This document shows positions 11,443 through 38,291 of a stretch of 64,000 bases of DNA, piece by piece. The notes under the pieces are model-generated. The model was not told the origin of the DNA, searched no databases, and saw only the letters and a list, made by a program, of their open reading frames with translations. The stretch's first letter is position 1; the number at the start of each line of letters is the position of its first letter. This DNA is from Minisyncoccota bacterium. Its GTDB lineage: Bacteria; Patescibacteriota; Minisyncoccia; Phycocordibacterales; UBA9973. The stretch is taken from contig DALYDY010000001.1 in NCBI GenBank assembly GCA_031972855.1, forward strand, positions 26,765 to 90,764, given 5' to 3'. The translations under genes were made by a program, and so were the position numbers.

Positions 11443-13080
11443 CTATTTTGCAAATTTTAAAGCACGCACAACAAAAGATTTGACTATAAGTACGAGAGCG
11501 TAAATACTTGCCACAAAAATATAGTCTTTTTCTGGATTTGTAATAACTAACAACACCACGAGACCAGCACCCAAAACAAAGAATGCTTCAGATACGAGAG
11601 CTACCAATTCTTGAACTGTATATTTATCATCTTTATCTATTTTTACATGAGCGCTTGGTATTACCTGCTTCATTATTATATTTGTTGTAGGTAAACCATT
11701 TTCAGGAACAGTAATACTCATTTCTTGATGCAAAGGTTCGTAGCCATATTTTCTAGCGAGCACTCTATATGTACCAGGAGCTACACTGAAGCTATATTCC
11801 CCTCTATGATTTGTCATTGTTCCGGCAACTTCCCTTCCATGAGAATCAATAAGAACCATAAATACAGGATCTATTGGAACATCATTTTCTGTTTGAACCT
11901 TACCCCAAGACTCCTTTTTCTTTCTAATACCAAGCATTGAAAGTATAAGGGAAATAAATCTTCCTGGGACCAAAAATAGTTCTGAGAAAGCAAGTGGTGT
12001 ATAGAAGAAACTTGTCATAGACAATACAACAGTGGACACAATAAGTCCAAGTACTGATATCGCACCAATATTTGAACGTGTCTCTTTGTCAGACAAAGCA
12101 ACACTTACCCCTCTTGCAGTATCAAAAGCAAATTCAAGTAATGTTTCAGAACTTATTTTAATATTATTAAATGTTCTATCAAAAACATTTGGTAATCCTT
12201 GAGTTATAAAAGTGATTGGGTCTAGATCATTTAGAGATGAGAATGGTTTTCCATAAGGATCAAGTCTTCTTCCATATGAAAAAGGTCTTGGTGGTGGTAG
12301 TGTTGGTTTTTTTATTTCAAAAATATCTTCTTCTTTTTTTATTTCGTCTTTTTTAATTTCTTCTTTTATAAAACAAAGAAGACCTGTACAAGGAGTTACT
12401 GGATTTACAGGATTTAGTGGATTTATCCAATCAAGAGGTGGGGGTGTAAAAGGCCCAGATTCATCATTATCTTCTAGATTCAAACAGCCTCCATCGCTTG
12501 GATAATCAATCATGAAGTCATTGTCATCATCTAGAGTATTGTTACATAGAGGTCTTGCAGGAACAGGTCTCCAATCAGTCTTTACACAACTGTTTGGATA
12601 ATCAGCATCTCCCGTATCACAAGAAAATTTTATCCAACCATAATTTTGAGTCCAAGCATATCCATTGAATTCTCCACTATTATTAATAGTTACTGTTGTG
12701 GCTGAATTATTTACAAATGGACCAAAATTAACCCAACCGGTATTCTCTCCCCAAGCATATCCGGAAATAATTCCATATTTAGTATTAGCAACCTTAAAAT
12801 CATTTGTTCCACAAATATTCGTATTTGAACAATTGAGATTTATCCATCCAATTTGTTCTCCCCACATATATCCTGTAAGTGAAGCATCATTTATTACTAC
12901 ATTATATGAATCCAAAGCTGTGTCAGTGTATTTTCCAGCATTCAATCTTCCAAATCCATCAGAGAATATAGATGATCTGAAAGTAGAGTCAATTGTTCCA
13001 ACTGTTACAGACGCACGCAAAGATAAAGCCCCAGTAAAAAAGACCAGAGCGCAAGAAATAATTATCCATATGCGCTTCAT
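11443..13080 (-). CDS. Secreted/membrane-anchored repeat protein with CarboxypepD_reg-like domain
   Basis: Signal peptide; three or more copies of a roughly 16-aa motif G[YH]xW[GT][EQ]x.GW[IV][NK]F (GYMWGEQIGWINLNC, GYAWGENTGWVNFG, GYAWTQNYGWIKFSC); Pro-rich linker; TM helices; C-terminal segment HRGEYSFSVAPGTYRVLARKYGYEP resembles a carboxypeptidase-regulatory-like beta-sandwich. Confidence 0.55.
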   Translation of the reverse strand: MKRIWIIISCALVFFTGALSLRASVTVGTIDSTFRSSIFSDGFGRLNAGKYTDTALDSYNVVINDASLTGYMWGEQIGWINLNCSNTNICGTNDFKVANTKYGIISGYAWGENTGWVNFGPFVNNSATTVTINNSGEFNGYAWTQNYGWIKFSCDTGDADYPNSCVKTDWRPVPARPLCNNTLDDDNDFMIDYPSDGGCLNLEDNDESGPFTPPPLDWINPLNPVNPVTPCTGLLCFIKEEIKKDEIKKEEDIFEIKKPTLPPPRPFSYGRRLDPYGKPFSSLNDLDPITFITQGLPNVFDRTFNNIKISSETLLEFAFDTARGVSVALSDKETRSNIGAISVLGLIVSTVVLSMTSFFYTPLAFSELFLVPGRFISLILSMLGIRKKKESWGKVQTENDVPIDPVFMVLIDSHGREVAGTMTNHRGEYSFSVAPGTYRVLARKYGYEPLHQEMSITVPENGLPTTNIIMKQVIPSAHVKIDKDDKYTVQELVALVSEAFFVLGAGLVVLLVITNPEKDYIFVASIYALVLIVKSFVVRALKFAK

Positions 13081-13111: not shown

Positions 13112-13738
13112 TTATAGAGAAATTCCTGTGAGTAACAAGAATAAAAAATATAGTATAGGCATTGCTATTGATTGCCATAAAAAGAAAATGAAGAAAAGCA
13201 GTATTACTAAACTATATTGTTCTAAAAATCTTTGAACATTGTAATATTTTGAAGGTAGTAAAGAAAAAAGAATTTTTGAACCATCAAGAGGTGGTATTGG
13301 AATAAGATTAAAAATAGCAAGAATTATATTTACAATCACAATAGCAGAGAATGCTTGAAGTATTCCAGGTGCTGTGAGTCCGAGTACTGGTGAAAATCTT
13401 ATAAGAAGACCAAAAACTATCGCTAAAACTAGATTGGAAATAATACCAGCACTGGCAACCAATAATGTTCCCCATTTAAAATTCCTTAAATTATTTGGAT
13501 TGTAAGGAACAGGTTTTGCCCAACCAATAATAAATCCTGCATTAGTAAGAACAAGAATAAGTGGCAAAAATATAGAACCTATAGGGTCTAAGTGTTTTAT
13601 AGGATTCATTGTAAGACGCCCTGACAGCTTGGCTGTTGGATCACCTTGTGAAAGAGCTGCGTATCCATGAGCTATTTCGTGAATAATCACAGAAAGCATC
13701 AATATTACTACATAAAATATACCTTGTATTAATTCCAT
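13112..13738 (-). CDS. Site-2 protease family (M50) membrane metalloprotease
   Basis: HEIAHG (HExxH) in a TM helix plus downstream ..PPLDGSK.. (LDG motif); polytopic. Confidence 0.7.
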   Translation of the reverse strand: MELIQGIFYVVILMLSVIIHEIAHGYAALSQGDPTAKLSGRLTMNPIKHLDPIGSIFLPLILVLTNAGFIIGWAKPVPYNPNNLRNFKWGTLLVASAGIISNLVLAIVFGLLIRFSPVLGLTAPGILQAFSAIVIVNIILAIFNLIPIPPLDGSKILFSLLPSKYYNVQRFLEQYSLVILLFFIFFLWQSIAMPILYFLFLLLTGISL

Positions 13739-27402: not shown

Positions 27403-29172
27403 TTATTCTGTTTCACTCCAACCACTAGGTGTCCAAGATCCGGAAGGTCCAGAATTAAAGTTCATGTCAGCAAGTCCGGATTCATATTCAACTTCAGCCG
27501 AACCAGAAAGTGTAACTCTATAACCAGTCGCTTCTTTTGCTTTTGCTGATCCAGAAAAATTGATTGTCCCATATGGTGCATACAAAACAACAGAGCCAGC
27601 TGATCCAGAAACATTTATTGCATTGTAGCCACAAGTAGCAGAATCACAGTTTGATAAAGCTATCATTAGAACATAACTACCATTTTGACCTGTTCCATTA
27701 ACTTGTCCACTTCCTCCATTATCAAATTTACCATCTGTAATAATAATTCCACTACTGTTTCCATAAGAAGCGGAAGCTAAAACAATTTTACCAGAACCAG
27801 AGAGTGTTATGTTTCCTGTAACCCAAAGTGTTCCTGAAACATAAAGAGTTCCACTTCCTCCAACAGTTAGATTACCGACAATCTTTTTTGGACCAAGAGT
27901 TGCTGTATTACTTCCAGAAACATCATAGTTTCCATTATGAGTTCCTCCAGCTAAAGCTTCTTGTTTCCATTCTTCAATATTACCTTCAGATATTGGGAAT
28001 TCTTGGTATGCTGGATCGGCTTGAGTTGTATTACATATTTTATTGTTTCCTGTACCACTCTGACAATAAAGAGATCCTGTTACATTTGTATAGTTAACAG
28101 TATTTGCTCTCGCATCACCACTTGTAGTACCTACTCGAAATTGATTCCATTGACTACCTGAATTTCCAGCAATTCTTCCATTTATACTAGACAAGAATAC
28201 ATTAAAATAAAAATCAAGAGTTGAAGGTGAAAGATTACTCCAAGCACCAAACACTGCACCTTTTTTTGAAGCGCCAGGAATATATCCAGCATTATTTCCA
28301 CCTGCAGAGTAATATCCTCCACCTGAAGTTGTTGTCATAACAATCCAGTAAGTTGTACCGGCTGTTAATGTAGGATTTGTTGTAAAACTAATATCAACCC
28401 AACCATACGATGTGGATACTTGAGAAGAAGAAAGTGTACCTTGAGCAAGTGATCCGAAGCCAGGATTACTTCCATTGTTTGGCAATATATAGACAGTTGT
28501 ATTATAAGGATTTCCAGTTTTCTTTAGGTATAGCTGAACCTTACTCAATTGAGCTGTTGTTGTTAATTTGAAACTTTGAGCTATATCAGTATTTGAAGTA
28601 TTACCTACAGAGATATCGTAAGTTGGAGTTCCTTCGCCGTTATATTGATCAGCTGTTGTAGGACTATTTGCAGATGTAGCTGAGCCTGTAATTGAAGCTG
28701 AGCCATCACCCGTGATTGGTCCGTTTGCGTATACGTTTCCTTTTATTTTTGCACTTCCTGTTAAATTGATACCTCCTCTACCAACTTGAACACCGTAGTT
28801 AAAAGAGACACCTGTATCTTGTGTAATAGTAAGTCCTAAGTTTCTTTCATAAGAGTCCATTTGTCCAGTAGAATTGATTTGTTTTTGATTTGTATTAATT
28901 GTACTTATTATTGAAGTTGAAGATGAATCACCTAGTACAAGAGTTTCTGTTGTATCTATTGTTATGTTGTTTTTTATTCTATAAAAAGCATCTTCTATCC
29001 CAGATTCTGCTAGAAAATAACTTTGTTCTGATTTTAATTTTGCATGATTAGTTTTAAAATCTCTTGCTATTGGACTAATTATACCTGTGGTTATTGTTGC
29101 ACTAGCTAAAGCAAAAAATAAAACCACTATAGTCATTGCTGCTCCACTTTGATTCTTTAAAGTTTTTTTCAT
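27403..29172 (-). CDS. Large PilX-like minor pilin / tip-associated protein
   Basis: 589 aa; N-terminus ..QSGAAMTIVVLFFALAS.. resembles the PilX_N/TadG-type pseudopilin helix; rest is Gly/Ser/Thr/Asn-rich; last gene of the pilus operon. Confidence 0.5.
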   Translation of the reverse strand: MKKTLKNQSGAAMTIVVLFFALASATITTGIISPIARDFKTNHAKLKSEQSYFLAESGIEDAFYRIKNNITIDTTETLVLGDSSSTSIISTINTNQKQINSTGQMDSYERNLGLTITQDTGVSFNYGVQVGRGGINLTGSAKIKGNVYANGPITGDGSASITGSATSANSPTTADQYNGEGTPTYDISVGNTSNTDIAQSFKLTTTAQLSKVQLYLKKTGNPYNTTVYILPNNGSNPGFGSLAQGTLSSSQVSTSYGWVDISFTTNPTLTAGTTYWIVMTTTSGGGYYSAGGNNAGYIPGASKKGAVFGAWSNLSPSTLDFYFNVFLSSINGRIAGNSGSQWNQFRVGTTSGDARANTVNYTNVTGSLYCQSGTGNNKICNTTQADPAYQEFPISEGNIEEWKQEALAGGTHNGNYDVSGSNTATLGPKKIVGNLTVGGSGTLYVSGTLWVTGNITLSGSGKIVLASASYGNSSGIIITDGKFDNGGSGQVNGTGQNGSYVLMIALSNCDSATCGYNAINVSGSAGSVVLYAPYGTINFSGSAKAKEATGYRVTLSGSAEVEYESGLADMNFNSGPSGSWTPSGWSETE

Positions 29173-29173
29173 A

Positions 29174-29668
29174 TTAATAATTACCTCTAAGAGAAACTGT
29201 TTGATAAAAATTTTCTGTAATTAAACCATTACCACCATTAATTGAAGTTTGTAATTCTATTTTTACACCTTCACCTGTTGCTGTAGTTATTTTTCTAAAT
29301 ATTAGACTAGATAGAGTTAATTTACTTGAAAGAATATTCCCAGAAAGCACACCATTTTCTGTAAGGTTAATTGAATTTCCAGACACATCAAAACGAACAA
29401 TTTTTGAACTTGGTTGATTTAAAACAAGAACTCCAGGATTTGTACCAAAAGTACTACTTACACTATTTATACTTTCTGATTTTCTAATTTCTCTAGTGAA
29501 CCGCTCCATTGTTTTTGTTCCAACACTGATCAAATAACGACGAGCTACGACTTCTTTGAAAGAACTGTTTGAAATACTGTATGAATAAATAATTACACCA
29601 GACAAAACCACAAAAATAAGAAGATAAATTAGAACTTCGATTATTGTTGATCCTTTTTGTAGTCTCAT
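29174..29668 (-). CDS. Type IV pilus minor pilin (pseudopilin)
   Basis: Prepilin-type N-terminus QKGSTIIEVLIYLLIFVVL. Confidence 0.7.
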   Translation of the reverse strand: MRLQKGSTIIEVLIYLLIFVVLSGVIIYSYSISNSSFKEVVARRYLISVGTKTMERFTREIRKSESINSVSSTFGTNPGVLVLNQPSSKIVRFDVSGNSINLTENGVLSGNILSSKLTLSSLIFRKITTATGEGVKIELQTSINGGNGLITENFYQTVSLRGNY

Positions 29669-29673
29669 ATAAA

Positions 29674-30168
29674 TTAGAAAATATTAAAAATATAAAGTTG
29701 TAATTGCTTTGTTACAGTTCCTTCTTTAGTATTGAAAGTTGTTGTTATTGTAAAAAGTTTACTATTACTGTCGAGAGTTCCAGTACTTGCAATGTCATTG
29801 TTTACATCTCTATAAACATTTGAGACTGTAATAATTCTAGTGAAATAATCTATAGTATTGGGTGTTTGTGAAAGAGACCAGAGATTAGTAGTAGTATTAA
29901 AATAAAGATAATAATTCGTACCGACTTGAAGACTTGAGATATTTGTCCAAGAATTATCGCGAATAAGACGAACTGCTTCAGCTCCTTCTGACAATAAGTT
30001 TGTTGTTTGAACCTCTTTTAAAGCTCTATTTGATAGAGTTATTCCTTTTGTTGAAACAAATGATATAGCTAAAACCAAAGAACTAACAATAGCTGAAGCA
30101 ATAATAACTTCAATCAAAGAAAATCCTAAATTTGGTTTAAGAAAACTTTTTTTCATTTTAATTAACAC
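29674..30168 (-). CDS. Type IV pilus minor pilin (pseudopilin)
   Basis: N-terminus ..LGFSLIEVIIASAIV.. Confidence 0.7.
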   Translation of the reverse strand: MLIKMKKSFLKPNLGFSLIEVIIASAIVSSLVLAISFVSTKGITLSNRALKEVQTTNLLSEGAEAVRLIRDNSWTNISSLQVGTNYYLYFNTTTNLWSLSQTPNTIDYFTRIITVSNVYRDVNNDIASTGTLDSNSKLFTITTTFNTKEGTVTKQLQLYIFNIF

Positions 30169-30664
30169 TCACTGATCCTGTTTTTAAAACAGTTATAATT
30201 TTATTTGTCGAAGGGAGTGTGGTGAGTGATATTGTTATTGTACCATAATTATTTGTATCACCAGTGAGTCTAGCGAAGCTTAATGTCTGTCCTCCACCAT
30301 TTAGTGACCATGCAGCTTGTACACCATTTTCATATAACAGAATTTCATTACCTACAGCACCTTCAGTAAAATTTGTACCAGAAAATAAAACCACTCTTGT
30401 AGACTCAATACGTACAGAATATTGTAAACCATTTAAAGAATTTAATGTTTGGTTTTGAGCTTTTTCAATAACAGAAATTATTTGAGAAGATGTTGAATTT
30501 AAATTATTTCTACCTCTAGAATTTTTTATATTTGGCAAAACAATAGCAAGCATTAATAAAAGTAGTCCGAGAGCTATTATTGTCTCCATAAACGTAAACC
30601 CATACACCAAAATTTTTGGTGTATGGGTAAAACCTAGAATGTTTTTTGTGTAGAAATTTTTCAT
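30158..30664 (-). CDS. Type IV pilus minor pilin (pseudopilin)
   Basis: N-terminus ..YGFTFMETIIALGLLLLMLAI.. Confidence 0.65.
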   Translation of the reverse strand: MKNFYTKNILGFTHTPKILVYGFTFMETIIALGLLLLMLAIVLPNIKNSRGRNNLNSTSSQIISVIEKAQNQTLNSLNGLQYSVRIESTRVVLFSGTNFTEGAVGNEILLYENGVQAAWSLNGGGQTLSFARLTGDTNNYGTITISLTTLPSTNKIITVLKTGSVSVN

Positions 30665-30667
30665 AAT

Positions 30668-31870
30668 TTATATATTATCCATCAAAGAATACATTGGTGA
30701 AAGCATTGAAACAGCAAAAAATCCAACAGCCACACCGATAAATATCATAAGTATAGGCTCTATAATAGTAGATAAGTCTTTTGTTTTTGATTCAACTTCA
30801 CCTTCATAAAAAAGCGCAACATCTATTAGCATTTGAGATAGTTTTCCTGTTTCTTCTCCAACCTCCACCATTTCACCAAACATTACAGGATATAGATTTT
30901 CATTTGCTTTAAAAATACCAGACAAAGGCTCTCCTTTTTCAACAGCAACCTTAGCATCTTCAATTAGTTTTTTATACAAACTATTTTGCAAGACTTCTTT
31001 TGTTATATCCAAAGCACGAGTTACAGGAACACCAGCAATCAAAAGTGAAGCAAGTGTTCTTGCTGTGCGAGCACTATTTGCTTCACGCGCTATATTACCA
31101 ATAATAGGTAATTTCAAAATAATTTTGTCTGCATATTTTTTTGTAAAAGAAGATTTTCCAAAAAAATAGATTCCAAAACCAGATATTATTATAAATAAAA
31201 CAACCAACAACAAATGATTTGATAGTGTATCACTTATCCAAATAACAACTTTAGTAGAAGATGGCAGTTCAGCTCCAACATCTTTAAAAGTTTTTGTGAG
31301 AGTTGGTACAACGAAAATAAACATCAAAATACCTATAATAAAAATTGCTGAAATAATAATAGAAGGATACATTAAAGCTCCTTTTATTTTTTTATTTAAA
31401 GAATATGTCTTTTCAAGACTTTGGCCAATTTCGTTTAGTGCTCCTACCATTCCTCCAGATTCTTCTCCTGCTCTAACCATTGAGATAAAAAGTGTTGAGA
31501 AAATTTTTGGAAATTTCTCCATTGAAGATGAGAATGTACTACCACCAGAAATATCATTTACTATTTTTGATAAAACATCTTTGAATATAATATTTTTAGT
31601 TTGTCTTTCAAGAATAGATATTGCACGAGCAAGAGCAAGGCCAGCAGAAAGCATACCTGAAAGATTTTTTGTAAACATTATTTTTTCTGAAAGACCCACT
31701 CCACTACCAAAAGAAAAAGTAAGAGGTTTTTTCTCGCCAACTATTTTCAAATTTAAAAGTGTTTTTCCTTCAGATCTAAGCTGTTTTGACAAAGAAAATT
31801 TATCTGGAGACTCAATGATCCCATTTTCTTTTGTTCCATCATTTTTTATCGCTTCATAAGCAAATTTCAT
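30668..31870 (-). CDS. pilC: Type IV pilus assembly platform protein PilC (GspF family)
   Basis: 400 aa, two GspF repeats with three TM segments. Confidence 0.85.
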   Translation of the reverse strand: MKFAYEAIKNDGTKENGIIESPDKFSLSKQLRSEGKTLLNLKIVGEKKPLTFSFGSGVGLSEKIMFTKNLSGMLSAGLALARAISILERQTKNIIFKDVLSKIVNDISGGSTFSSSMEKFPKIFSTLFISMVRAGEESGGMVGALNEIGQSLEKTYSLNKKIKGALMYPSIIISAIFIIGILMFIFVVPTLTKTFKDVGAELPSSTKVVIWISDTLSNHLLLVVLFIIISGFGIYFFGKSSFTKKYADKIILKLPIIGNIAREANSARTARTLASLLIAGVPVTRALDITKEVLQNSLYKKLIEDAKVAVEKGEPLSGIFKANENLYPVMFGEMVEVGEETGKLSQMLIDVALFYEGEVESKTKDLSTIIEPILMIFIGVAVGFFAVSMLSPMYSLMDNI

Positions 31871-31875
31871 ATTTT

Positions 31876-33633
31876 TTATTCAGAAACAACACGCAAAACT
31901 TCTTCTGTTGTTGTATATCCTTGTACTGCAAGGAAAATACCATCTTCAAGCATAGTTATCATTCCCTCTTTTTTTCCTTGAGCTTCTATTGCGTCAGCTG
32001 AAGCACCTGAAATAATCAAATCTTTTATTGTTGATGTAACTTTTAATACTTCATGAATACCTACACGCCCCTTATATCCGTCTTCAGCATCAGCTGATCC
32101 TACAGGCTTATAAAAAGGTACATCTTTCCATTCTACTTTTTGATCAACAACATTTTCTTCTTTTAAAAGATTTAACATTCTATCTAGATCAATTATTTTT
32201 CCTAGAGCCTTTAACTCTGCTTCATTCATAAAGTACTTTTCTTTTGAATCAGCAAGTCTTCTAACTAGACGTTGAGCAATAACAGTCTTTAATGTTGAAA
32301 CAAGAAGAAATGGTTCGGCTCCCATATCGATAAAACGAGGAATTGCACCAGCAGCTGAGTTTGTGTGAATAGTTGATAAAACCAAGTGACCGGTAAGGGC
32401 AGCATTAATAGCTAAAGATGCTGTTTCTCCATCACGAATCTCTCCCACCATTATTATATTTGGATCTTGACGAAGAAGTGCGCGCAAACCATTTGCAAAA
32501 GTCATTCCAATATCAGAACGAACTTGAGTTTGATTTATACGAGCCATCTGATATTCAATAGGGTCTTCAACTGTTGAAATATTTACATTAGGAGTATTCA
32601 ACATATCCAAAATAGTATATAGGGTTGTAGTTTTACCAGAACCTGTTGGACCTGAAGCAAGTATCATGCCAGTGTGAAGTTTCATTGCTTCATGAATTCT
32701 CTCTAAAGACTCACCATGAAATCCTAATTTTTCTAATGAAAATCCTTTTGAGTTTTCACGCAAAATACGAATAACTGTTTTTTCTCCAAAATATGTTGGG
32801 ATTGTAGACACACGAAAAGAAACTTTTTGATCTTCATTAGATATTTTAAAACGCCCATCTTGAGGAAGTCGCTTTTCATCAAGTTTCAAATTTGAAAGAA
32901 CTTTTATACGAGCAACAATTCCATGAGCAGAGTCTTTTGGCAAAACCATGGCGTCACGCAAAATACCATCAATACGATAACGAACAACAAGAGAATCTTC
33001 TAAAGGTTCTATGTGAATATCAGAAGCATCTTGCAAAATAGCATGTGAAATAAGAGAATCCACAATCTTAACGATAGGTAAATCTTCGGCAAGCTCTTTT
33101 AATTCAGCCTCAGAAACAGCTTCCCCATTATTTGCACCTTCGGCTATAGCTTTAATTGAAACAGATTCTTTTTGAATTATGTCGTCGAATTCTGCACGAA
33201 GACTTTTTTTGTATAAAGTTAGTGCGTGTTTTATAGAAGAAACATCTGTAAGTCTTGGTAGAATTTTTTGTTGTAATTTTTTTCTTAAAAAATCAATTGT
33301 TGATATATCATTAATATCGAGCATCGCAACTTCAACAGTCGTTTCTGTTTTTTTATAAGCAACAACATTATGATTTTTTGCAATTGGTTCTGGAATAAGA
33401 GAAAGCACATCTGCATCTATCTTTTCATCAACCAAAGAAACGAAAGGTACACCAAGAACATACGCCTGGGCTCGACGCAAATCTGTTTCTGATATTTTAT
33501 TTTCAGAAACAAGCACATCTGCAAATGAAGATCTTTTATCTTTAGATACTTCTTCCGCAGAAGTAACATCATCTCGTGTTACAACACCAGCATCTATAAG
33601 AAACGATTTTAATGCTTCTTCATTTATAATCAT
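31876..33633 (-). CDS. pilB: Type IV pilus assembly ATPase PilB (GspE family)
   Basis: Walker A ..ASGPTGSGKTTTLY.., N-terminal GSPII domain, His box; start moved to the internal ATG MIINEEALK.. at 33633. Confidence 0.9.
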   Translation of the reverse strand: MIINEEALKSFLIDAGVVTRDDVTSAEEVSKDKRSSFADVLVSENKISETDLRRAQAYVLGVPFVSLVDEKIDADVLSLIPEPIAKNHNVVAYKKTETTVEVAMLDINDISTIDFLRKKLQQKILPRLTDVSSIKHALTLYKKSLRAEFDDIIQKESVSIKAIAEGANNGEAVSEAELKELAEDLPIVKIVDSLISHAILQDASDIHIEPLEDSLVVRYRIDGILRDAMVLPKDSAHGIVARIKVLSNLKLDEKRLPQDGRFKISNEDQKVSFRVSTIPTYFGEKTVIRILRENSKGFSLEKLGFHGESLERIHEAMKLHTGMILASGPTGSGKTTTLYTILDMLNTPNVNISTVEDPIEYQMARINQTQVRSDIGMTFANGLRALLRQDPNIIMVGEIRDGETASLAINAALTGHLVLSTIHTNSAAGAIPRFIDMGAEPFLLVSTLKTVIAQRLVRRLADSKEKYFMNEAELKALGKIIDLDRMLNLLKEENVVDQKVEWKDVPFYKPVGSADAEDGYKGRVGIHEVLKVTSTIKDLIISGASADAIEAQGKKEGMITMLEDGIFLAVQGYTTTEEVLRVVSE

Positions 33634-33738
33634 TAAGTATATTTTCTCACAGACTTTGATTAATAGCACGAAAAAATTTGTGTATAAAATAAAAAATCCC
33701 AACAATTATTTTAATCAGTTGGGATTTTTTATTTTTTA

Positions 33739-35244
33739 TTACCAAGTAATTTTTATTTGTCCTGCAGCACCATGTCCAGCTTGAGGACAACCATTTGGTA
33801 TACAACCATAACCATAATTTCTTCTTCCTCCATTTCCAACTGTTATATTAAATGTTTCACCAGCATTTACAGGAAAAGCTGTTTTTATATAACCACCAGC
33901 TCCACCACCATAAGCTTTATTTATTTGATGAACACCTGAGCCTCCAGCAAAACGAAATACAAAATTATCAGCTTTTAATCCTTTACACAAATCAATAACT
34001 CCTATTTTACAATTATCTAAATCTAGATAATTAGAAGGCGTACCTGAAACACTGTCTGTACCATATACACCAGAAGGAGCTCCCGGTGTACTTCCACCGC
34101 CACCAGGAAGAACTCCGTCTTTTACTTCTACATGGCCACTATTAGTCCAAAAACCACCCAATGTTCTATATCCTGCACTATTATCTGTATTACCACTACC
34201 CCATGCCCTACCTATAGAAAACCAAGATCCTTGTCCAGTTCCAAAATCAAGATTTAAACAATTAAAATCTAGTGGAAGTCTTGCTGCGTCACTAAACGCT
34301 CCTAAGTTTCCAGGGTCAAATAAACTATTTAAAATAGGTGCAACACCTCCTGGAGTACTAGAAGAAGATCCTAAGTATGCTGCTCCACCAACAGCTCCAC
34401 CTCCTCCAGTATTTCCATAAACAAGGTAACGATTAGGATTCCCTGAATAATTACATTCATAGATAGATGGTGTTGGAGCATTTGGAGCACCAGTTCCATT
34501 ACCACCAGCACGAATATCATTTATACCTATTGTTGAACGAGTACCAGTTCTAGCTCCTCCAATTCCTCCAGCACCTCCACTTGTATTAGATGCATTTGAT
34601 CCATTGTATCCAGTAACCGAAATACTAGAACCTGTTGTTGAAACTATTGTTGAATTATTTGGTTGAATTACTGTAGGTCCAACTTCTTGATTATTACTTG
34701 TAAGTCCAACATATCCAGCTCCTCCAGCTCCCCAAACTTCAACCATGACTTGATAGACGCCAGAAGATGGAACTTGCCATGTATAATTTCCTGGTAAATC
34801 TGGATATCCAGAAACATCATTTTCTGCTGTATTAAACATAGCAACTCCATGAGATGTATTTTGAGGTACATCAACACAAAGAATTACTTGTCCCGTATTA
34901 GAAACACAAAGCCTTTGAGGTGTTGTTGATGTTGATATATTAGAAATTGATAATCCTTTTGTTGTAAGATTTCCTGTTATAGAAGCATTTCCATTAGAAA
35001 CAATTCCATTTGTTGTGAGTGTACCATAAACATCTAATTTAGTACCTGATGTAGGAGAATTAGAACTTCCGATCATAAAAGATCCTGTTCTTGAATTAAT
35101 ATTATCTCCAACATTCCATATTGAGGGTTGTCCATTTGGATATCCAGAAGATGGTCTTGCTGCATAAATATCAACAAAATTAACAGCAACAATTAAAACT
35201 AGAGACGCAACTATAAGTTTTATAAAAGGTATATATTTTTTCAT
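33739..35244 (-). CDS. Secreted Gly-rich protein, long member of a 3-gene paralogous family
   Basis: Sec signal peptide; N-terminal about 110 aa homologous to the next two ORFs (..RPSxxYPN.QP..., ..GTLxTNG.., T..R.LCVS..G.LI.C Cys pair); then a roughly 390-aa Gly-rich extension. Confidence 0.5.
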   Translation of the reverse strand: MKKYIPFIKLIVASLVLIVAVNFVDIYAARPSSGYPNGQPSIWNVGDNINSRTGSFMIGSSNSPTSGTKLDVYGTLTTNGIVSNGNASITGNLTTKGLSISNISTSTTPQRLCVSNTGQVILCVDVPQNTSHGVAMFNTAENDVSGYPDLPGNYTWQVPSSGVYQVMVEVWGAGGAGYVGLTSNNQEVGPTVIQPNNSTIVSTTGSSISVTGYNGSNASNTSGGAGGIGGARTGTRSTIGINDIRAGGNGTGAPNAPTPSIYECNYSGNPNRYLVYGNTGGGGAVGGAAYLGSSSSTPGGVAPILNSLFDPGNLGAFSDAARLPLDFNCLNLDFGTGQGSWFSIGRAWGSGNTDNSAGYRTLGGFWTNSGHVEVKDGVLPGGGGSTPGAPSGVYGTDSVSGTPSNYLDLDNCKIGVIDLCKGLKADNFVFRFAGGSGVHQINKAYGGGAGGYIKTAFPVNAGETFNITVGNGGRRNYGYGCIPNGCPQAGHGAAGQIKITW

Positions 35245-35245
35245 A

Positions 35246-35626
35246 TTATGGACAAACTATTAATTTACCAATACTAGATACGCAAAGTTCTCTGTTTGTA
35301 GGAGACGTACCAGAAAGTTTACTTACGGTTAAATTTGTAGTATCTAAATTATAATTTATTTGTGTATTTGCTGGAACAATGAAACCATTAGTGAATAATG
35401 TACCAATTATATCAAACATAACACCAGGTGTTGGAGAATTAGACGTACCCACAGCAAGAGCTGATGTTCTCATTTGAGGAGAAGATGAATTTAAAACAAA
35501 AGGTGATACTGGTTGACTATTTGGATATGTACCACTTGGCCTTACCGCAAAAGTGTGTACTGCATTTGATAAAAGAACAATACTTATAGATACAAAGAAT
35601 AAATGTGTTATTGATATTTTTTTCAT
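35246..35626 (-). CDS. Small secreted protein, paralogue family member
   Basis: 126 aa; signal peptide; ends ..TNRELCVSSIGKLIVCP. Confidence 0.5.
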   Translation of the reverse strand: MKKISITHLFFVSISIVLLSNAVHTFAVRPSGTYPNSQPVSPFVLNSSSPQMRTSALAVGTSNSPTPGVMFDIIGTLFTNGFIVPANTQINYNLDTTNLTVSKLSGTSPTNRELCVSSIGKLIVCP

Positions 35627-35630
35627 ATAT

Positions 35631-36167
35631 TTAACAAGCTACCAAAACGTTATAAGTCCAAGGATTTATAAATCCGAGTGTTAAAGTGTTTTGAACAATA
35701 CAAACATTTCTAGTTCCAGAACCAACCAAATCTGTTATTAGAACATCACCATCTGTACTACCAGACGATGTTTTATTCACTGTTGTTGTTCCAGAAGTTA
35801 TAACATCACCATCAACAAGTAATCCGTCTGTAAGTGAACCTGAAGGGAGATTGAGAGATCCTATTTTTGTAATTCCATTAACATGAACTGTTTGCCCAAG
35901 AGCTGGCGGATTAAAACTTGGAATACTGCCACCAAAATTATAAGGTTGACTGTCAATCCCTATAGCAAGAGCCCTCCTAACAACATCGGCGCTAGTTCTG
36001 TTTTGAGGAGCTTCACCTGTCTTGCTTTGAGAAATACCTGTTATTAAAACAGGACTTGATGGTTGTCCCCCTGGTGCTATTTGTGTTGGAGAAGCGTAAG
36101 TTACCCCTACAGCTGAAAGCAGTACAAAACTTACTATAATAATTGATTCTTTTAGTGAAAAATACAT
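35631..36167 (-). CDS. Small secreted protein, paralogue family member
   Basis: 178 aa; signal peptide; ends ..RNVCIVQNTLTLGF..VLVAC. Confidence 0.45.
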   Translation of the reverse strand: MYFSLKESIIIVSFVLLSAVGVTYASPTQIAPGGQPSSPVLITGISQSKTGEAPQNRTSADVVRRALAIGIDSQPYNFGGSIPSFNPPALGQTVHVNGITKIGSLNLPSGSLTDGLLVDGDVITSGTTTVNKTSSGSTDGDVLITDLVGSGTRNVCIVQNTLTLGFINPWTYNVLVAC

Positions 36168-36184
36168 ATATAATTAATCTTTTT

Positions 36185-37960
36185 TTATTCTTCTTTATAA
36201 AAAGGTGCTGGTAAAATATTTGTTCCAAATCTCCACAACAATCTTCCACCTTTTCCAGTTAGAGGACTTCCAGTAATAAACATTCCTGGATCAACACCTT
36301 TTATTCCAACAATTGTAGAAGCTATAACAACTTTACCATTAGTGTCTGCACACTCTAAAGTAAATGTTTCAGCTGTTGCGCCCATATTTACAGTTTCTGA
36401 TCCTGAAATACTTTTTGGACCAGTCCAAGCAGGAGTTGATCCTGCTGGAATAATGTTTGCAGAACCACCTATACCCGTATAAGCTTTACAGCCAGAAACA
36501 TTTTTACCTTCCCATCTTAATAATGTTGTACTGTTTGGGTCTACAACTTGAGGAAAAGCTGTCAATCTTAAACCTGAAGGTGTTACATTTATTCCATTAA
36601 CTTTTGGATTTCCTCCTGTAAAGTAAACAACACTATTTCCCCCACTTCCATTAGCACAAGAGAGTAGATACTGATTTATTGCACCATTATAAATAACAGA
36701 AACTGAACCAGATCTAGATATTTGACCACTACCTGGCTGAGTTGCACCATTTAATGTACATGTTCCAGAAGGAATTTGAGCTAGAGGTGTAACATTAAAG
36801 CTTGTTGAGTGAGTTTCTGATCCGTCAGTTGAATCAACTACAACCAAATGATTTCCAGACCCAGCAGCAAGATTTACAGGGATAGTCATTCTAATTACAA
36901 ATGTTCCACTTATATTTGTACTTAAAAATCTCATATCAAGAGGATAAGTAGGAGCAAGACTTGGGTCTGGTTGAGCTCGTGGTACTGGATTACCATTATA
37001 AAGAAGTTCATATGTAGCTCCAGACAGAGATGGATTATTAGAACCTATTGATGTATATAAGTTTTTAGAACTTGGGTGTCCTAGAACTGTTAAAGGTATA
37101 TCAAAAGAAACATTTGCACCACCCTCAACAAAAGTTGCTGGATAAGGAACACCTATATAAAACCAAGGCATAACAACTCCAGACAGAATTGTTACTGTTG
37201 TATTACTTGAAACAGTAGTTATTCCATCTGTACATGTTATTGTATAAACTCTTGAAGATGAAGGATCATTACCTACATTCACTGTATCAGTTCCTGAAGT
37301 AGCTTTTGTTCCAGACCACTGACTAGAAGATATACTATTACTTGCTGTACAAGTATAACCTGTTAAATTTTGAGATGTCCAAGATAGAGTAATATTGCTA
37401 TTTCTATAAACACTATTTGGTGTAGCTGTAATTGTAACTGTAGGAGTTATTGATGATTGAACACCAACACCAGAAAAATCAATCCAGCCTATTTTATCAT
37501 TCCAAGCGTGTCCTTGAAACATTCCAGAACCGCCACTAATAACACTTACACCCGCCAAATCAACAAATCCTTCAGATCCAAGTGATAATATTTTTGCAAA
37601 ACCTTGCATTCCAGTATTAGAATTAAGTCTTGGACTACAAGGTGAAGAATTCCCAGAATAAGAAGAACATCCAACAGAATCACTTGACTCAAAAGATATC
37701 CATCCAAGATTATCATTCCAAGCGTACCCAGAGAAATTACCATTTGTTGACATATTTACACCATAATCTACACCAGAACAACTAGAAGATACTGTAGATG
37801 TACAGTTATTAAATGATAACCACCCAATAGTATCATTCCATGCATGACCAAAAACATTATCTCCAGAACTAGAAGAAACTGTATTTATATTTAAAAAACT
37901 AAAAGATAATATTATAGCCAGAGTTCCTATTGAAGAATAAATTATATTTTTTATTTTCAT
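36185..37960 (-). CDS. Large secreted repeat protein (G[YH]AWND..GW[IL].F repeats + Ig-like region)
   Basis: 591 aa; signal peptide; GHAWNDTIGWLSFNNC / GYAWNDNLGWISFESS / GHAWNDKIGWIDFSG; same repeat type as the 11443..13080 protein. Confidence 0.5.
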   Translation of the reverse strand: MKIKNIIYSSIGTLAIILSFSFLNINTVSSSSGDNVFGHAWNDTIGWLSFNNCTSTVSSSCSGVDYGVNMSTNGNFSGYAWNDNLGWISFESSDSVGCSSYSGNSSPCSPRLNSNTGMQGFAKILSLGSEGFVDLAGVSVISGGSGMFQGHAWNDKIGWIDFSGVGVQSSITPTVTITATPNSVYRNSNITLSWTSQNLTGYTCTASNSISSSQWSGTKATSGTDTVNVGNDPSSSRVYTITCTDGITTVSSNTTVTILSGVVMPWFYIGVPYPATFVEGGANVSFDIPLTVLGHPSSKNLYTSIGSNNPSLSGATYELLYNGNPVPRAQPDPSLAPTYPLDMRFLSTNISGTFVIRMTIPVNLAAGSGNHLVVVDSTDGSETHSTSFNVTPLAQIPSGTCTLNGATQPGSGQISRSGSVSVIYNGAINQYLLSCANGSGGNSVVYFTGGNPKVNGINVTPSGLRLTAFPQVVDPNSTTLLRWEGKNVSGCKAYTGIGGSANIIPAGSTPAWTGPKSISGSETVNMGATAETFTLECADTNGKVVIASTIVGIKGVDPGMFITGSPLTGKGGRLLWRFGTNILPAPFYKEE

Positions 37961-37961
37961 A

Positions 37962-38291
37962 TTATTGATTTTTTAAAAATTCATTAACCAAATCTTCGTC
38001 AGCATTTTTAACTTCTTTTGGAGAAACTGTGAATGATTCTTGTTTTTTTAGATCTTCTACCATTTTTTGTTTTTCTTCTGGTGTTGTTTTTATAGAAGCA
38101 GCTCTTTGTGCTACATTTTCTGTATATTGTTCTATTTGAGTCTTTTTTGGTTTATTATTCTTTTTATAAAACCAAAAAGCGGCTCCTAATATAATCAAAA
38201 CTATTAGTATAGAAATAACAAGAGAGAGGGTTTGTTTGCTCATATATAATTTGTGGGCAAATGGTGTTGATTCTTTATTTATTGGATCCAT
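37962..38291 (-). CDS. Small membrane-anchored protein (first gene of pilus operon)
   Basis: 109 aa, single TM, charged C-terminal tail. Confidence 0.4.
   Translation of the reverse strand: MDPINKESTPFAHKLYMSKQTLSLVISILIVLIILGAAFWFYKKNNKPKKTQIEQYTENVAQRAASIKTTPEEKQKMVEDLKKQESFTVSPKEVKNADEDLVNEFLKNQ

Follow-up and report, generated by a model that had tools for sequence, protein, structure and literature searches.

The window analysed here is a stretch of 64,000 nucleotides of a Minisyncoccota bacterium (assembly GCA_031972855.1, contig DALYDY010000001.1, positions 26,765 to 90,764), and it encodes two secreted proteins that carry the same aromatic, tryptophan-rich repeat: protein A (545 amino acids (aa), 11443..13080, minus strand) and protein B (591 aa, 36185..37960, minus strand). 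We find that these repeats are the parts of one extracytoplasmic domain of ~145 aa, made of four units of ~35 aa in fixed copy number, and that this domain represents a large, multi-phylum family matched by no Pfam or NCBIfam model and by no solved structure. The module is predicted with good confidence to be an eight-stranded up-and-down β-barrel of pseudo-four-fold construction, assembled from four Trp-flanked hairpins, and we read it as a surface β-barrel binding domain of an undescribed family. The function that we favour, at a probability of roughly 55%, is that of a displayed binding or adhesion head, with proteins of the B type most likely acting together with the type IV pilus in attachment to surfaces or to a host.

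An earlier note on this DNA had drawn attention to the repeat and counted seven copies of it in the two proteins. Both open reading frames (ORFs) are present as described, and the repeat that they share is real. A six-frame translation of the window contains six matches to the strict motif G[YHWF]xW(3-5)GW[ILVM]x[FLWY], all confined to proteins A and B, against a chance expectation of 0.0 (200 nucleotide shuffles and 200 residue shuffles). In protein A, the motif scan located the cores of repeat 2, GYMWGEQIGWINL (aa 70-82, 12835..12873), repeat 3, GYAWGENTGWVNF (aa 107-119, 12724..12762), and repeat 4, GYAWTQNYGWIKF (aa 140-152, 12625..12663), which begin 37 and 33 aa apart. The canonical cores of protein B are those of repeat 1, GHAWNDTIGWLSF (aa 38-50, 37811..37849), repeat 2, GYAWNDNLGWISF (aa 78-90, 37691..37729), and repeat 4, GHAWNDKIGWIDF (aa 150-162, 37475..37513), at intervals of 40 and 72 aa; all six cores lie on the minus strand. 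The 72-aa interval corresponds to two units and encloses a degenerate copy, GFAKILSLGSEGFVDL (aa 120-135, 37556..37603, minus strand), a variant that is kept across B-type homologues with the consensus GWAxALSxxxxGWDGWIxL (alignment A3). The first unit of protein A, GTIDSTFRSSIFSDGFGRLNAG (aa 28-49, 12934..12999, minus strand), is likewise degenerate; it was revealed by alignment to the hidden Markov model (HMM) of the family, where it pairs with the first family repeat, YAWGENiGWiNF. The family alignments show that the tryptophans have gone from both of these copies. Each protein accordingly has four repeats, three canonical and one degenerate or variant, so that the earlier count holds for six canonical copies and misses the mark for the remainder, there being two degenerate ones besides. 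The repeat cores (39 nt) are merely 62-80% identical in DNA sequence, which points to an old duplication.

The repeat region of protein A has 142 homologues, and full-length protein B has five orthologues (P0121-P0125) together with ~115 proteins that share its N-terminal ~150 aa only. Alignments of 118, 59 and 110 proteins give the same four-unit consensus, GVxVxDxxGxLSGYAWGENIGWINF, placed after a Sec signal peptide, and in many proteins the module ends in (V)xTDWRP. When 1,412 units were stacked, a glycine at position -3 was conserved in 81%, followed by Y (67%), A (89%), W (90%), E (71%), N (83%), G (100%), W (97%), I (81%) and F/L (97%), some of the conserved positions having belonged to the pattern by which units were selected. 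A family HMM from which the query was left out recovers protein A at E=1.8e-51 and protein B at E=1.1e-18, and these are its sole matches among the 234 ORFs of the window.

The family extends far beyond this genome. Among 1.84 billion cluster representatives, the HMM has 9,282 matches at E≤1e-3, 7,049 at E≤1e-10 and 2,856 at E≤1e-30, the ~7,000 matching clusters being clusters at 50% identity. A scan of species-representative genomes with a 13-sequence alignment confirmed at least 551 loci in at least 10 phyla. Hosts include Planctomycetota (many, Brocadia and Kuenenia among them), Desulfobacterota, Nitrospirota, Acidobacteriota, Gemmatimonadota, Gammaproteobacteria (for example Thiomargarita), Chloroflexota, Verrucomicrobiota, Methylomirabilota, Patescibacteria and Saccharibacteria (L051 and L075), a distribution that contradicts the earlier suggestion of a lineage-specific module. 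A single locus was confirmed among 2.9 million viral contigs, and on this near absence we rejected the idea of a phage receptor-binding module. Near-tandem paralogous module genes were seen ~1.3 kb apart at two loci (L011:3007-5609 and L065:2385-6083), and a 2,248-aa protein of Desulfobacterales (L042:3687-10433) contains two complete four-repeat modules.

No model in Pfam-A or NCBIfam falls on the module at E≤1, be it in protein A, protein B or canonical members of the family, and the repeats thus match no well-described Pfam repeat family. A profile search of the PDB returned nothing significant; its one candidate relative, FlgD (3c12) at E=0.038, was taken as a chance match. Foldseek found no PDB match under E=0.17. 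Motif variants, queried as exact substrings, were absent from the literature searched, and a keyword search of the literature on Patescibacteria surface proteins and pili gave nothing relevant.

Structure prediction with AlphaFold2 (AF2) gave all-β models for protein A (aa 24-200, alignment A1; predicted local distance difference test score (pLDDT) 85.6, predicted template modelling score (pTM) 0.80) and for protein B (aa 25-185, the independent alignment A3; pLDDT 84.0, pTM 0.77). Both models match closed eight-stranded barrels. The fold comparison brought up membrane barrels (the de novo transmembrane barrel 6x9z, OprF-N, NspA, OmpA, OmpW and PagL) as well as soluble ones (hemophilin, HpuA, NHBA-C, fHbp, TbpB, YceI and avidins). 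The degenerate copies are part of the modelled fold: repeat 1 of protein A appears as a hairpin of strands E4-16 and E22-24, and repeat 3 of protein B as strands E93-100 and E108-116. In the predicted arrangement, each unit would contribute one β-hairpin, with a cross-strand Trp/Trp pair flanking a G-E-N-x-G turn, and the four hairpins would close into the barrel. From the alternation of residues along the strands, we infer a tight interior lined by L/G/A/I/F, with Y/W/W and S/N on the opposite face and the four W-GENxG-W turns gathered at one pole; a ligand would bind at this pole, on the conserved GEN turns. The β-solenoid or propeller that had been envisaged before is replaced in these predictions by the eight-stranded barrel. 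Pairs of cysteines lie in post-hairpin loops of protein A (C84/C90 and C154/C165) and of protein B (C52/C61 and C98/C108), and they are probably disulfide staples, consistent with an extracytoplasmic location.

Protein A runs from a signal peptide through the four-hairpin module, an Asp/Cys loop and a Pro-rich linker to a pair of transmembrane (TM) segments, a CarboxypepD_reg domain and a second TM pair. All of its features lie on the minus strand. The Sec-type signal peptide (aa 1-23, 13012..13080) is indicated by the hydrophobic stretch aa 1-25 and by the family-wide pattern, with a predicted cleavage site at ...LSLRA|S, and the module follows it directly (aa 24-172, 12565..13011), ending in the conserved TDWRP. 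The Asp-rich, Cys-bracketed loop CNNTLDDDNDFMIDYPSDGGC (aa 179-199, 12484..12546) is kept in homologue P0001 and has no Pfam match; it possibly binds calcium, as suggested by a resemblance, and only that, to the TSP3/MopE-type calcium or metal-binding motifs of other members. Hydrophobic segments 1 and 2 (aa 335-361 and 367-386, 11923..12078; Kyte-Doolittle windows) precede the CarboxypepD_reg-like domain (aa 393-468, 11677..11904; PF13620, E=7.5e-9), which scores 36.3 bits against a gathering cut-off of 32.3, and segments 3 and 4 (aa 489-517 and 519-544, 11449..11616; hydropathy) follow it. The domain and the TM anchors had both been attributed to protein A from the sequence, and the Pfam and hydropathy results bear this out. 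Given the topology predicted from these windows, the layout fits a membrane-tethered stalk tipped by the barrel, in which the Pro-rich stalk would hold the barrel off the membrane. Fusion to CarboxypepD_reg recurs elsewhere in the family, at loci L043 and L073 too. Just upstream of the gene, 13112..13738 (minus strand) encodes a 208-aa multi-TM protein with a HEIAHG zinc-protease motif, which recalls site-2 or M50-type proteases.

Protein B is simpler, consisting of a Sec-type signal peptide (~aa 1-30, 37871..37960, minus strand; hydrophobic aa 5-25), the four-hairpin module (aa 31-168, 37457..37870, minus strand) and a C-terminal region that has no Pfam match. We considered whether it might itself be a type IV pilin or pseudopilin and rejected this, since it has no N_methyl (PF07963) match and no G-F-T-L-x-E motif, and carries a Sec signal peptide in place of a prepilin leader. 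The G|F-T-L-x-E prepilin motif was found by regular expression in 2 of the 396 family members, P0138 and P0179. In these two proteins, both from Patescibacteria, the module at aa ~264-390 is joined to an authentic prepilin N-terminus (N_methyl, GFTL[IV]E), and the operon of P0138 (L083:8001-9254) holds three pilin genes.

The link of protein B to the pilus is one of gene position, and it is stronger than first described, when B was simply placed second in a pilus operon. Its gene is the second of a five-gene cassette (33739..38291, minus strand) that encodes a 109-aa TM protein, protein B and secreted proteins of 178, 126 and 501 aa, in the gene order also found at L001 and L002. The cassette, divergent with respect to nusA, has its last gene 33 nt before pilB. 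Downstream come the type IV pilus genes (27403..33705, minus strand; Pfam T2SSE E=2e-121, T2SSF E=5e-51 and N_methyl), namely pilB (31876-33705), pilC (30668-31870), three pilin-like genes (29174-30664) and a gene for a 589-aa protein (27403-29172), and these are followed by tpiA and pgk. Two of the pilin-like genes match N_methyl and the third has a sub-threshold match to ComGE. The 589-aa protein is Gly/Ser/Thr-rich, with an N-terminal hydrophobic segment; Pfam does not match it, and from its position it may be associated with the pilus, as a tip protein or adhesin. The four cassette partners of protein B (33739..36167 and 37962..38291, minus strand) have no Pfam match above cut-off. The 109-aa protein has a single TM segment; the three secreted partners have in common a P-x-G-x-YPN-x-QP motif behind the signal peptide as well as an LCVS..G.L..C motif, and the largest of them has a faint Gly_rich_2 match in L001.

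The same association recurs in relatives of protein B. The cassette is kept in L001, with pilB and pilC after it, and in L002, without them; in both the window and L001, three cassette genes separate the module gene from pilB. More distant B-type proteins have the module alone in common, at 33-41% identity. At L085 (P0153), L086 (P0145) and L090 (P0229) the module gene stands immediately upstream of pilB, at a distance of 6-87 nt; at L087 (P0157) it is flanked by prepilin peptidase and pilin genes; and at L083 the pilin fusion P0138 is encoded immediately after pilC. Together with the window and L001, these make 7 of the 10 B-type contexts in Patescibacteria pilus-linked. Large proteins with Peptidase_S74, the intramolecular chaperone of trimeric fibres, adjoin module genes at four Patescibacteria loci (L083:9873-15389, L090:4575-6995, L091:4491-5894 and L092:6670-10089), which suggests islands of surface-fibre genes.

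The architectures of the wider family make a ligand- or host-binding role plausible. In nearly all loci the module begins at the mature N-terminus, straight after the signal peptide, and what follows it varies. Among 110 representatives, the partners are PG_binding_1 in 12, CarboxypepD_reg in 10, SLH and TSP3_bac in 5 each and MopE-type motifs in 4, along with various Ig-like, PKD, CARDB and FN3 domains; Planctomycete members have a GC-type dockerin anchor at the C-terminus. Two minimal proteins, P0063 and P0062, consist of a signal peptide, the module and a dedicated anchor, and nothing else. Since the module is fused to dedicated anchors, and since these minimal proteins exist, a head is favoured over an anchor. 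The means of tethering this head would differ between lineages: TM helices in protein A, PG_binding_1, SLH or a GC-type dockerin in others, and a pilin N-terminus in the relatives noted above. Protein B would bind outside the cell and work alongside the type IV pilus in attachment to a surface or host.

Several observations weigh against a binding head that cooperates with the pilus. The binding role is a putative one, read from the architectures, and the barrel fold is a prediction only. One N-terminal module followed by variable passengers (PKD, LamG, CARDB, Kelch and FN3) is a pattern that anchoring or sorting modules commonly show as well. In protein B, NDT, NDN and NDK stand in place of the polar GEN turn, which makes a single ligand site common to A and B doubtful. 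Three of the 10 B-type contexts lack an adjacent pilB or pilC: L002, L088 (P0167), which has no pilus genes nearby, and L089 (P0148), which occupies the same nusA..tpiA slot without pilB/pilC. Two A-type relatives show no pilus linkage. In a scan of the cassette-pilus array for promoters and terminators, promoter-like sites fell below the shuffle expectation and the gap from the 501-aa gene to pilB held no terminator, which does not settle whether the cassette and pilB form one operon.

Outside the pilus context, a second kind of neighbour emerged from 80 loci whose neighbouring proteins were clustered all against all. No neighbour is universal among them, and a cluster present at 28 loci apparently consists of antisense ORFs over the module gene itself. 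In other phyla, the module gene adjoins a diversity-generating retroelement (DGR), comprising an Lcl_C target gene with its variable repeat (VR), bAvd, the template repeat (TR), as well as a reverse transcriptase (RT), in 6-7 of the 80 loci, the lower figure applying because L067 holds an RT fragment only, with no VR/TR pair. The spans concerned are L041:1943-5786, L052:407-3931, L062:105-5699, L077:181-5390, L073:91-6965, L043:484-7766 and L067:4244-6128. Their hosts are Thermodesulfobacteriota, Parcubacteria, Anaerolineae, Gammaproteobacteria, Desulfobacterales, an unclassified bacterium and Verrucomicrobia, counted as five phyla, and at five of the seven loci the module gene starts 7-60 nt past the last DGR gene (RT or Avd). 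We rejected the module as a DGR target: the VR always lies in the separate, upstream Lcl_C gene and at no locus within the module gene, so that diversification does not affect the module itself, and the window contains no RT or Avd homologue. Should the adjacency survive a full census, it would be a new conserved neighbour of DGR systems. As a tentative and rather speculative extension, the barrel may be an unrecognised multi-phylum adhesion or receptor-binding domain that Patescibacteria would use for attachment to hosts or surfaces, together with their type IV pili or at times fused to them, and that would elsewhere operate with DGR-diversified C-type-lectin proteins, as a common 'constant' binding or docking partner in systems of surface recognition.

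The DGR loci also invite a reading in which the module protein binds no external ligand itself and is instead a partner or scaffold that docks the DGR-diversified Lcl_C protein, which has a C-type-lectin fold, or other fibre proteins, at the cell surface. The tight spacing of module and DGR genes across five phyla speaks for such docking, as do the fibre-type Peptidase_S74 neighbours at L083, L090, L091 and L092. Yet a DGR is lacking from the window and from over 90% of the loci sampled, and the adjacency could simply mean that both reside on mobile islands of surface-protein genes; moreover, the accessory genes listed in a survey of DGRs (avd, HRDC, MSL and CH1) include none that resembles the module protein (PMC5758913). 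We therefore hold docking to be improbable. An anchoring module, in which the barrel grips a wall or S-layer polymer of its own producer and displays passengers in the manner of SLH, CWB2, LysM or choline-binding repeats, strikes us as unlikely, if less so. It would account for one conserved module being joined to very diverse C-terminal passengers (Ig-like domains as well as the five kinds named above), for the several paralogues per genome (two in the window, the tandem genes of L011 and L065, and a further two genomes with two loci apiece) and for the resemblance of aromatic-rich hairpin repeats to wall-binding repeats. It sits poorly with the frequent fusions to anchors that are already dedicated to the task (PG_binding_1, SLH, GC-type dockerin, TM helices and the pilin N-terminus) and with the proteins that are nothing more than module plus anchor, and a wall ligand common to phyla with envelopes as different as those of Planctomycetota, Proteobacteria, Chloroflexota and Patescibacteria is itself unlikely.

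Two further readings concern what kind of structure the repeats build, and to both we give little credence. A membrane-embedded, OmpA-like eight-stranded barrel, seated in an outer membrane or outer layer, would agree with the membrane barrels among the fold matches, but the modelled strands are short, at 4-8 residues against the ~10 or more taken as the criterion for spanning a membrane, and polar GEN and D/N-rich turns occupy both poles. The module is, in addition, abundant among Patescibacteria, a group commonly regarded as having no outer membrane; SLH, PG-binding or TM-helix anchors are its fusion partners, and it stands N-terminal to long arrays of soluble domains; and neither OmpA_membrane nor OMP_b-brl of Pfam matches protein A, protein B or seven canonical members. 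These points leave a membrane barrel quite improbable. Less probable still, and indeed very much so, is that the repeats are divergent choline-binding or YG repeats (CW_binding_1) forming a β-solenoid. The earlier note had called that likeness loose and a poor match, and we agree that it is superficial: the shared features are aromatic-rich β-hairpin repeats, a conserved G-W/Y and secretion, a resemblance and nothing further, whereas PF01473 and related models give no match at E≤1 in the same set of proteins, the period is 33-40 aa as against ~20, four copies are always present, and both AF2 models match closed barrels rather than solenoids.

Defining this family, with its ~7,000 or more clusters in at least 10 phyla, would annotate thousands of surface proteins that are now 'hypothetical'. 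For Patescibacteria the interest is more immediate. These bacteria are mostly episymbionts, and, apart from the requirement for type IV pili, little is understood of how they recognise and hold their hosts; a conserved secreted protein that is encoded next to pilB in most sampled genomes and has a distinctive binding-type domain is a concrete candidate for an adhesin. The module would also represent a trpzip-like way of building an eight-stranded barrel that is natural and four-fold repeated, and as such it may interest groups working on protein evolution and design.

Several known systems invite comparison with the module. Soluble eight-stranded barrels of bacterial surface proteins that bind ligands (hemophilin, HpuA, TbpB, fHbp and NHBA, as well as avidins and YceI) are likewise extracytoplasmic and occur in surface-tethered proteins. 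They share 2-15% sequence identity with the module and show no HMM or Foldseek match to it; unlike the module, they lack both an internal four-fold repeat in the sequence and the GYAWGENIGW motif, and their usual place is at the C-terminus of lipoproteins, whereas the module stands at the N-terminus, behind a Sec signal peptide. With respect to OmpA-like barrels (OmpA, OprF-N, NspA, OmpW and PagL), the module differs in strands too short for a membrane, in polar turns, and in its occurrence in Patescibacteria and in proteins anchored by SLH, PG-binding domains or TM helices. CW_binding_1 (PF01473) and YG glucan-binding repeats are, like the module, secreted and built of aromatic-rich β-hairpins with a conserved Gly-Trp/Tyr. 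Those repeats have a period of ~20 aa and a variable copy number and form an open superhelical solenoid; the module has a period of 33-40 aa, exactly four copies, a predicted closed barrel and no Pfam match.

Among pilus systems, the closest counterparts are the type IV pilus adhesins and minor-pilin fusions, such as the PilY1/PilC-type tip proteins. In most Patescibacteria contexts the module gene likewise lies next to pilB/pilC and pilin genes, and the relatives P0138 and P0179 are, in the same way, true pilin fusions with N_methyl. Protein B differs from PilY1/PilC in having no similar Pfam domains and in its Sec signal peptide, and its link to the pilus is known from gene position. At the level of the single hairpin, the nearest parallel is the tryptophan zipper (trpzip), exemplified by SWTWENGKWTWK. 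Trpzip hairpins are isolated synthetic peptides of 12-16 residues, obtained by design. The module likewise places a cross-strand Trp pair around an E-N-G-type turn (W-G-E-N-x-G-W), and by this analogy, which is no more than that, such a pair probably explains the high conservation of the hairpin core. Where the trpzip peptides stand alone, the module would bring together four such hairpins within a natural domain of ~145 aa.

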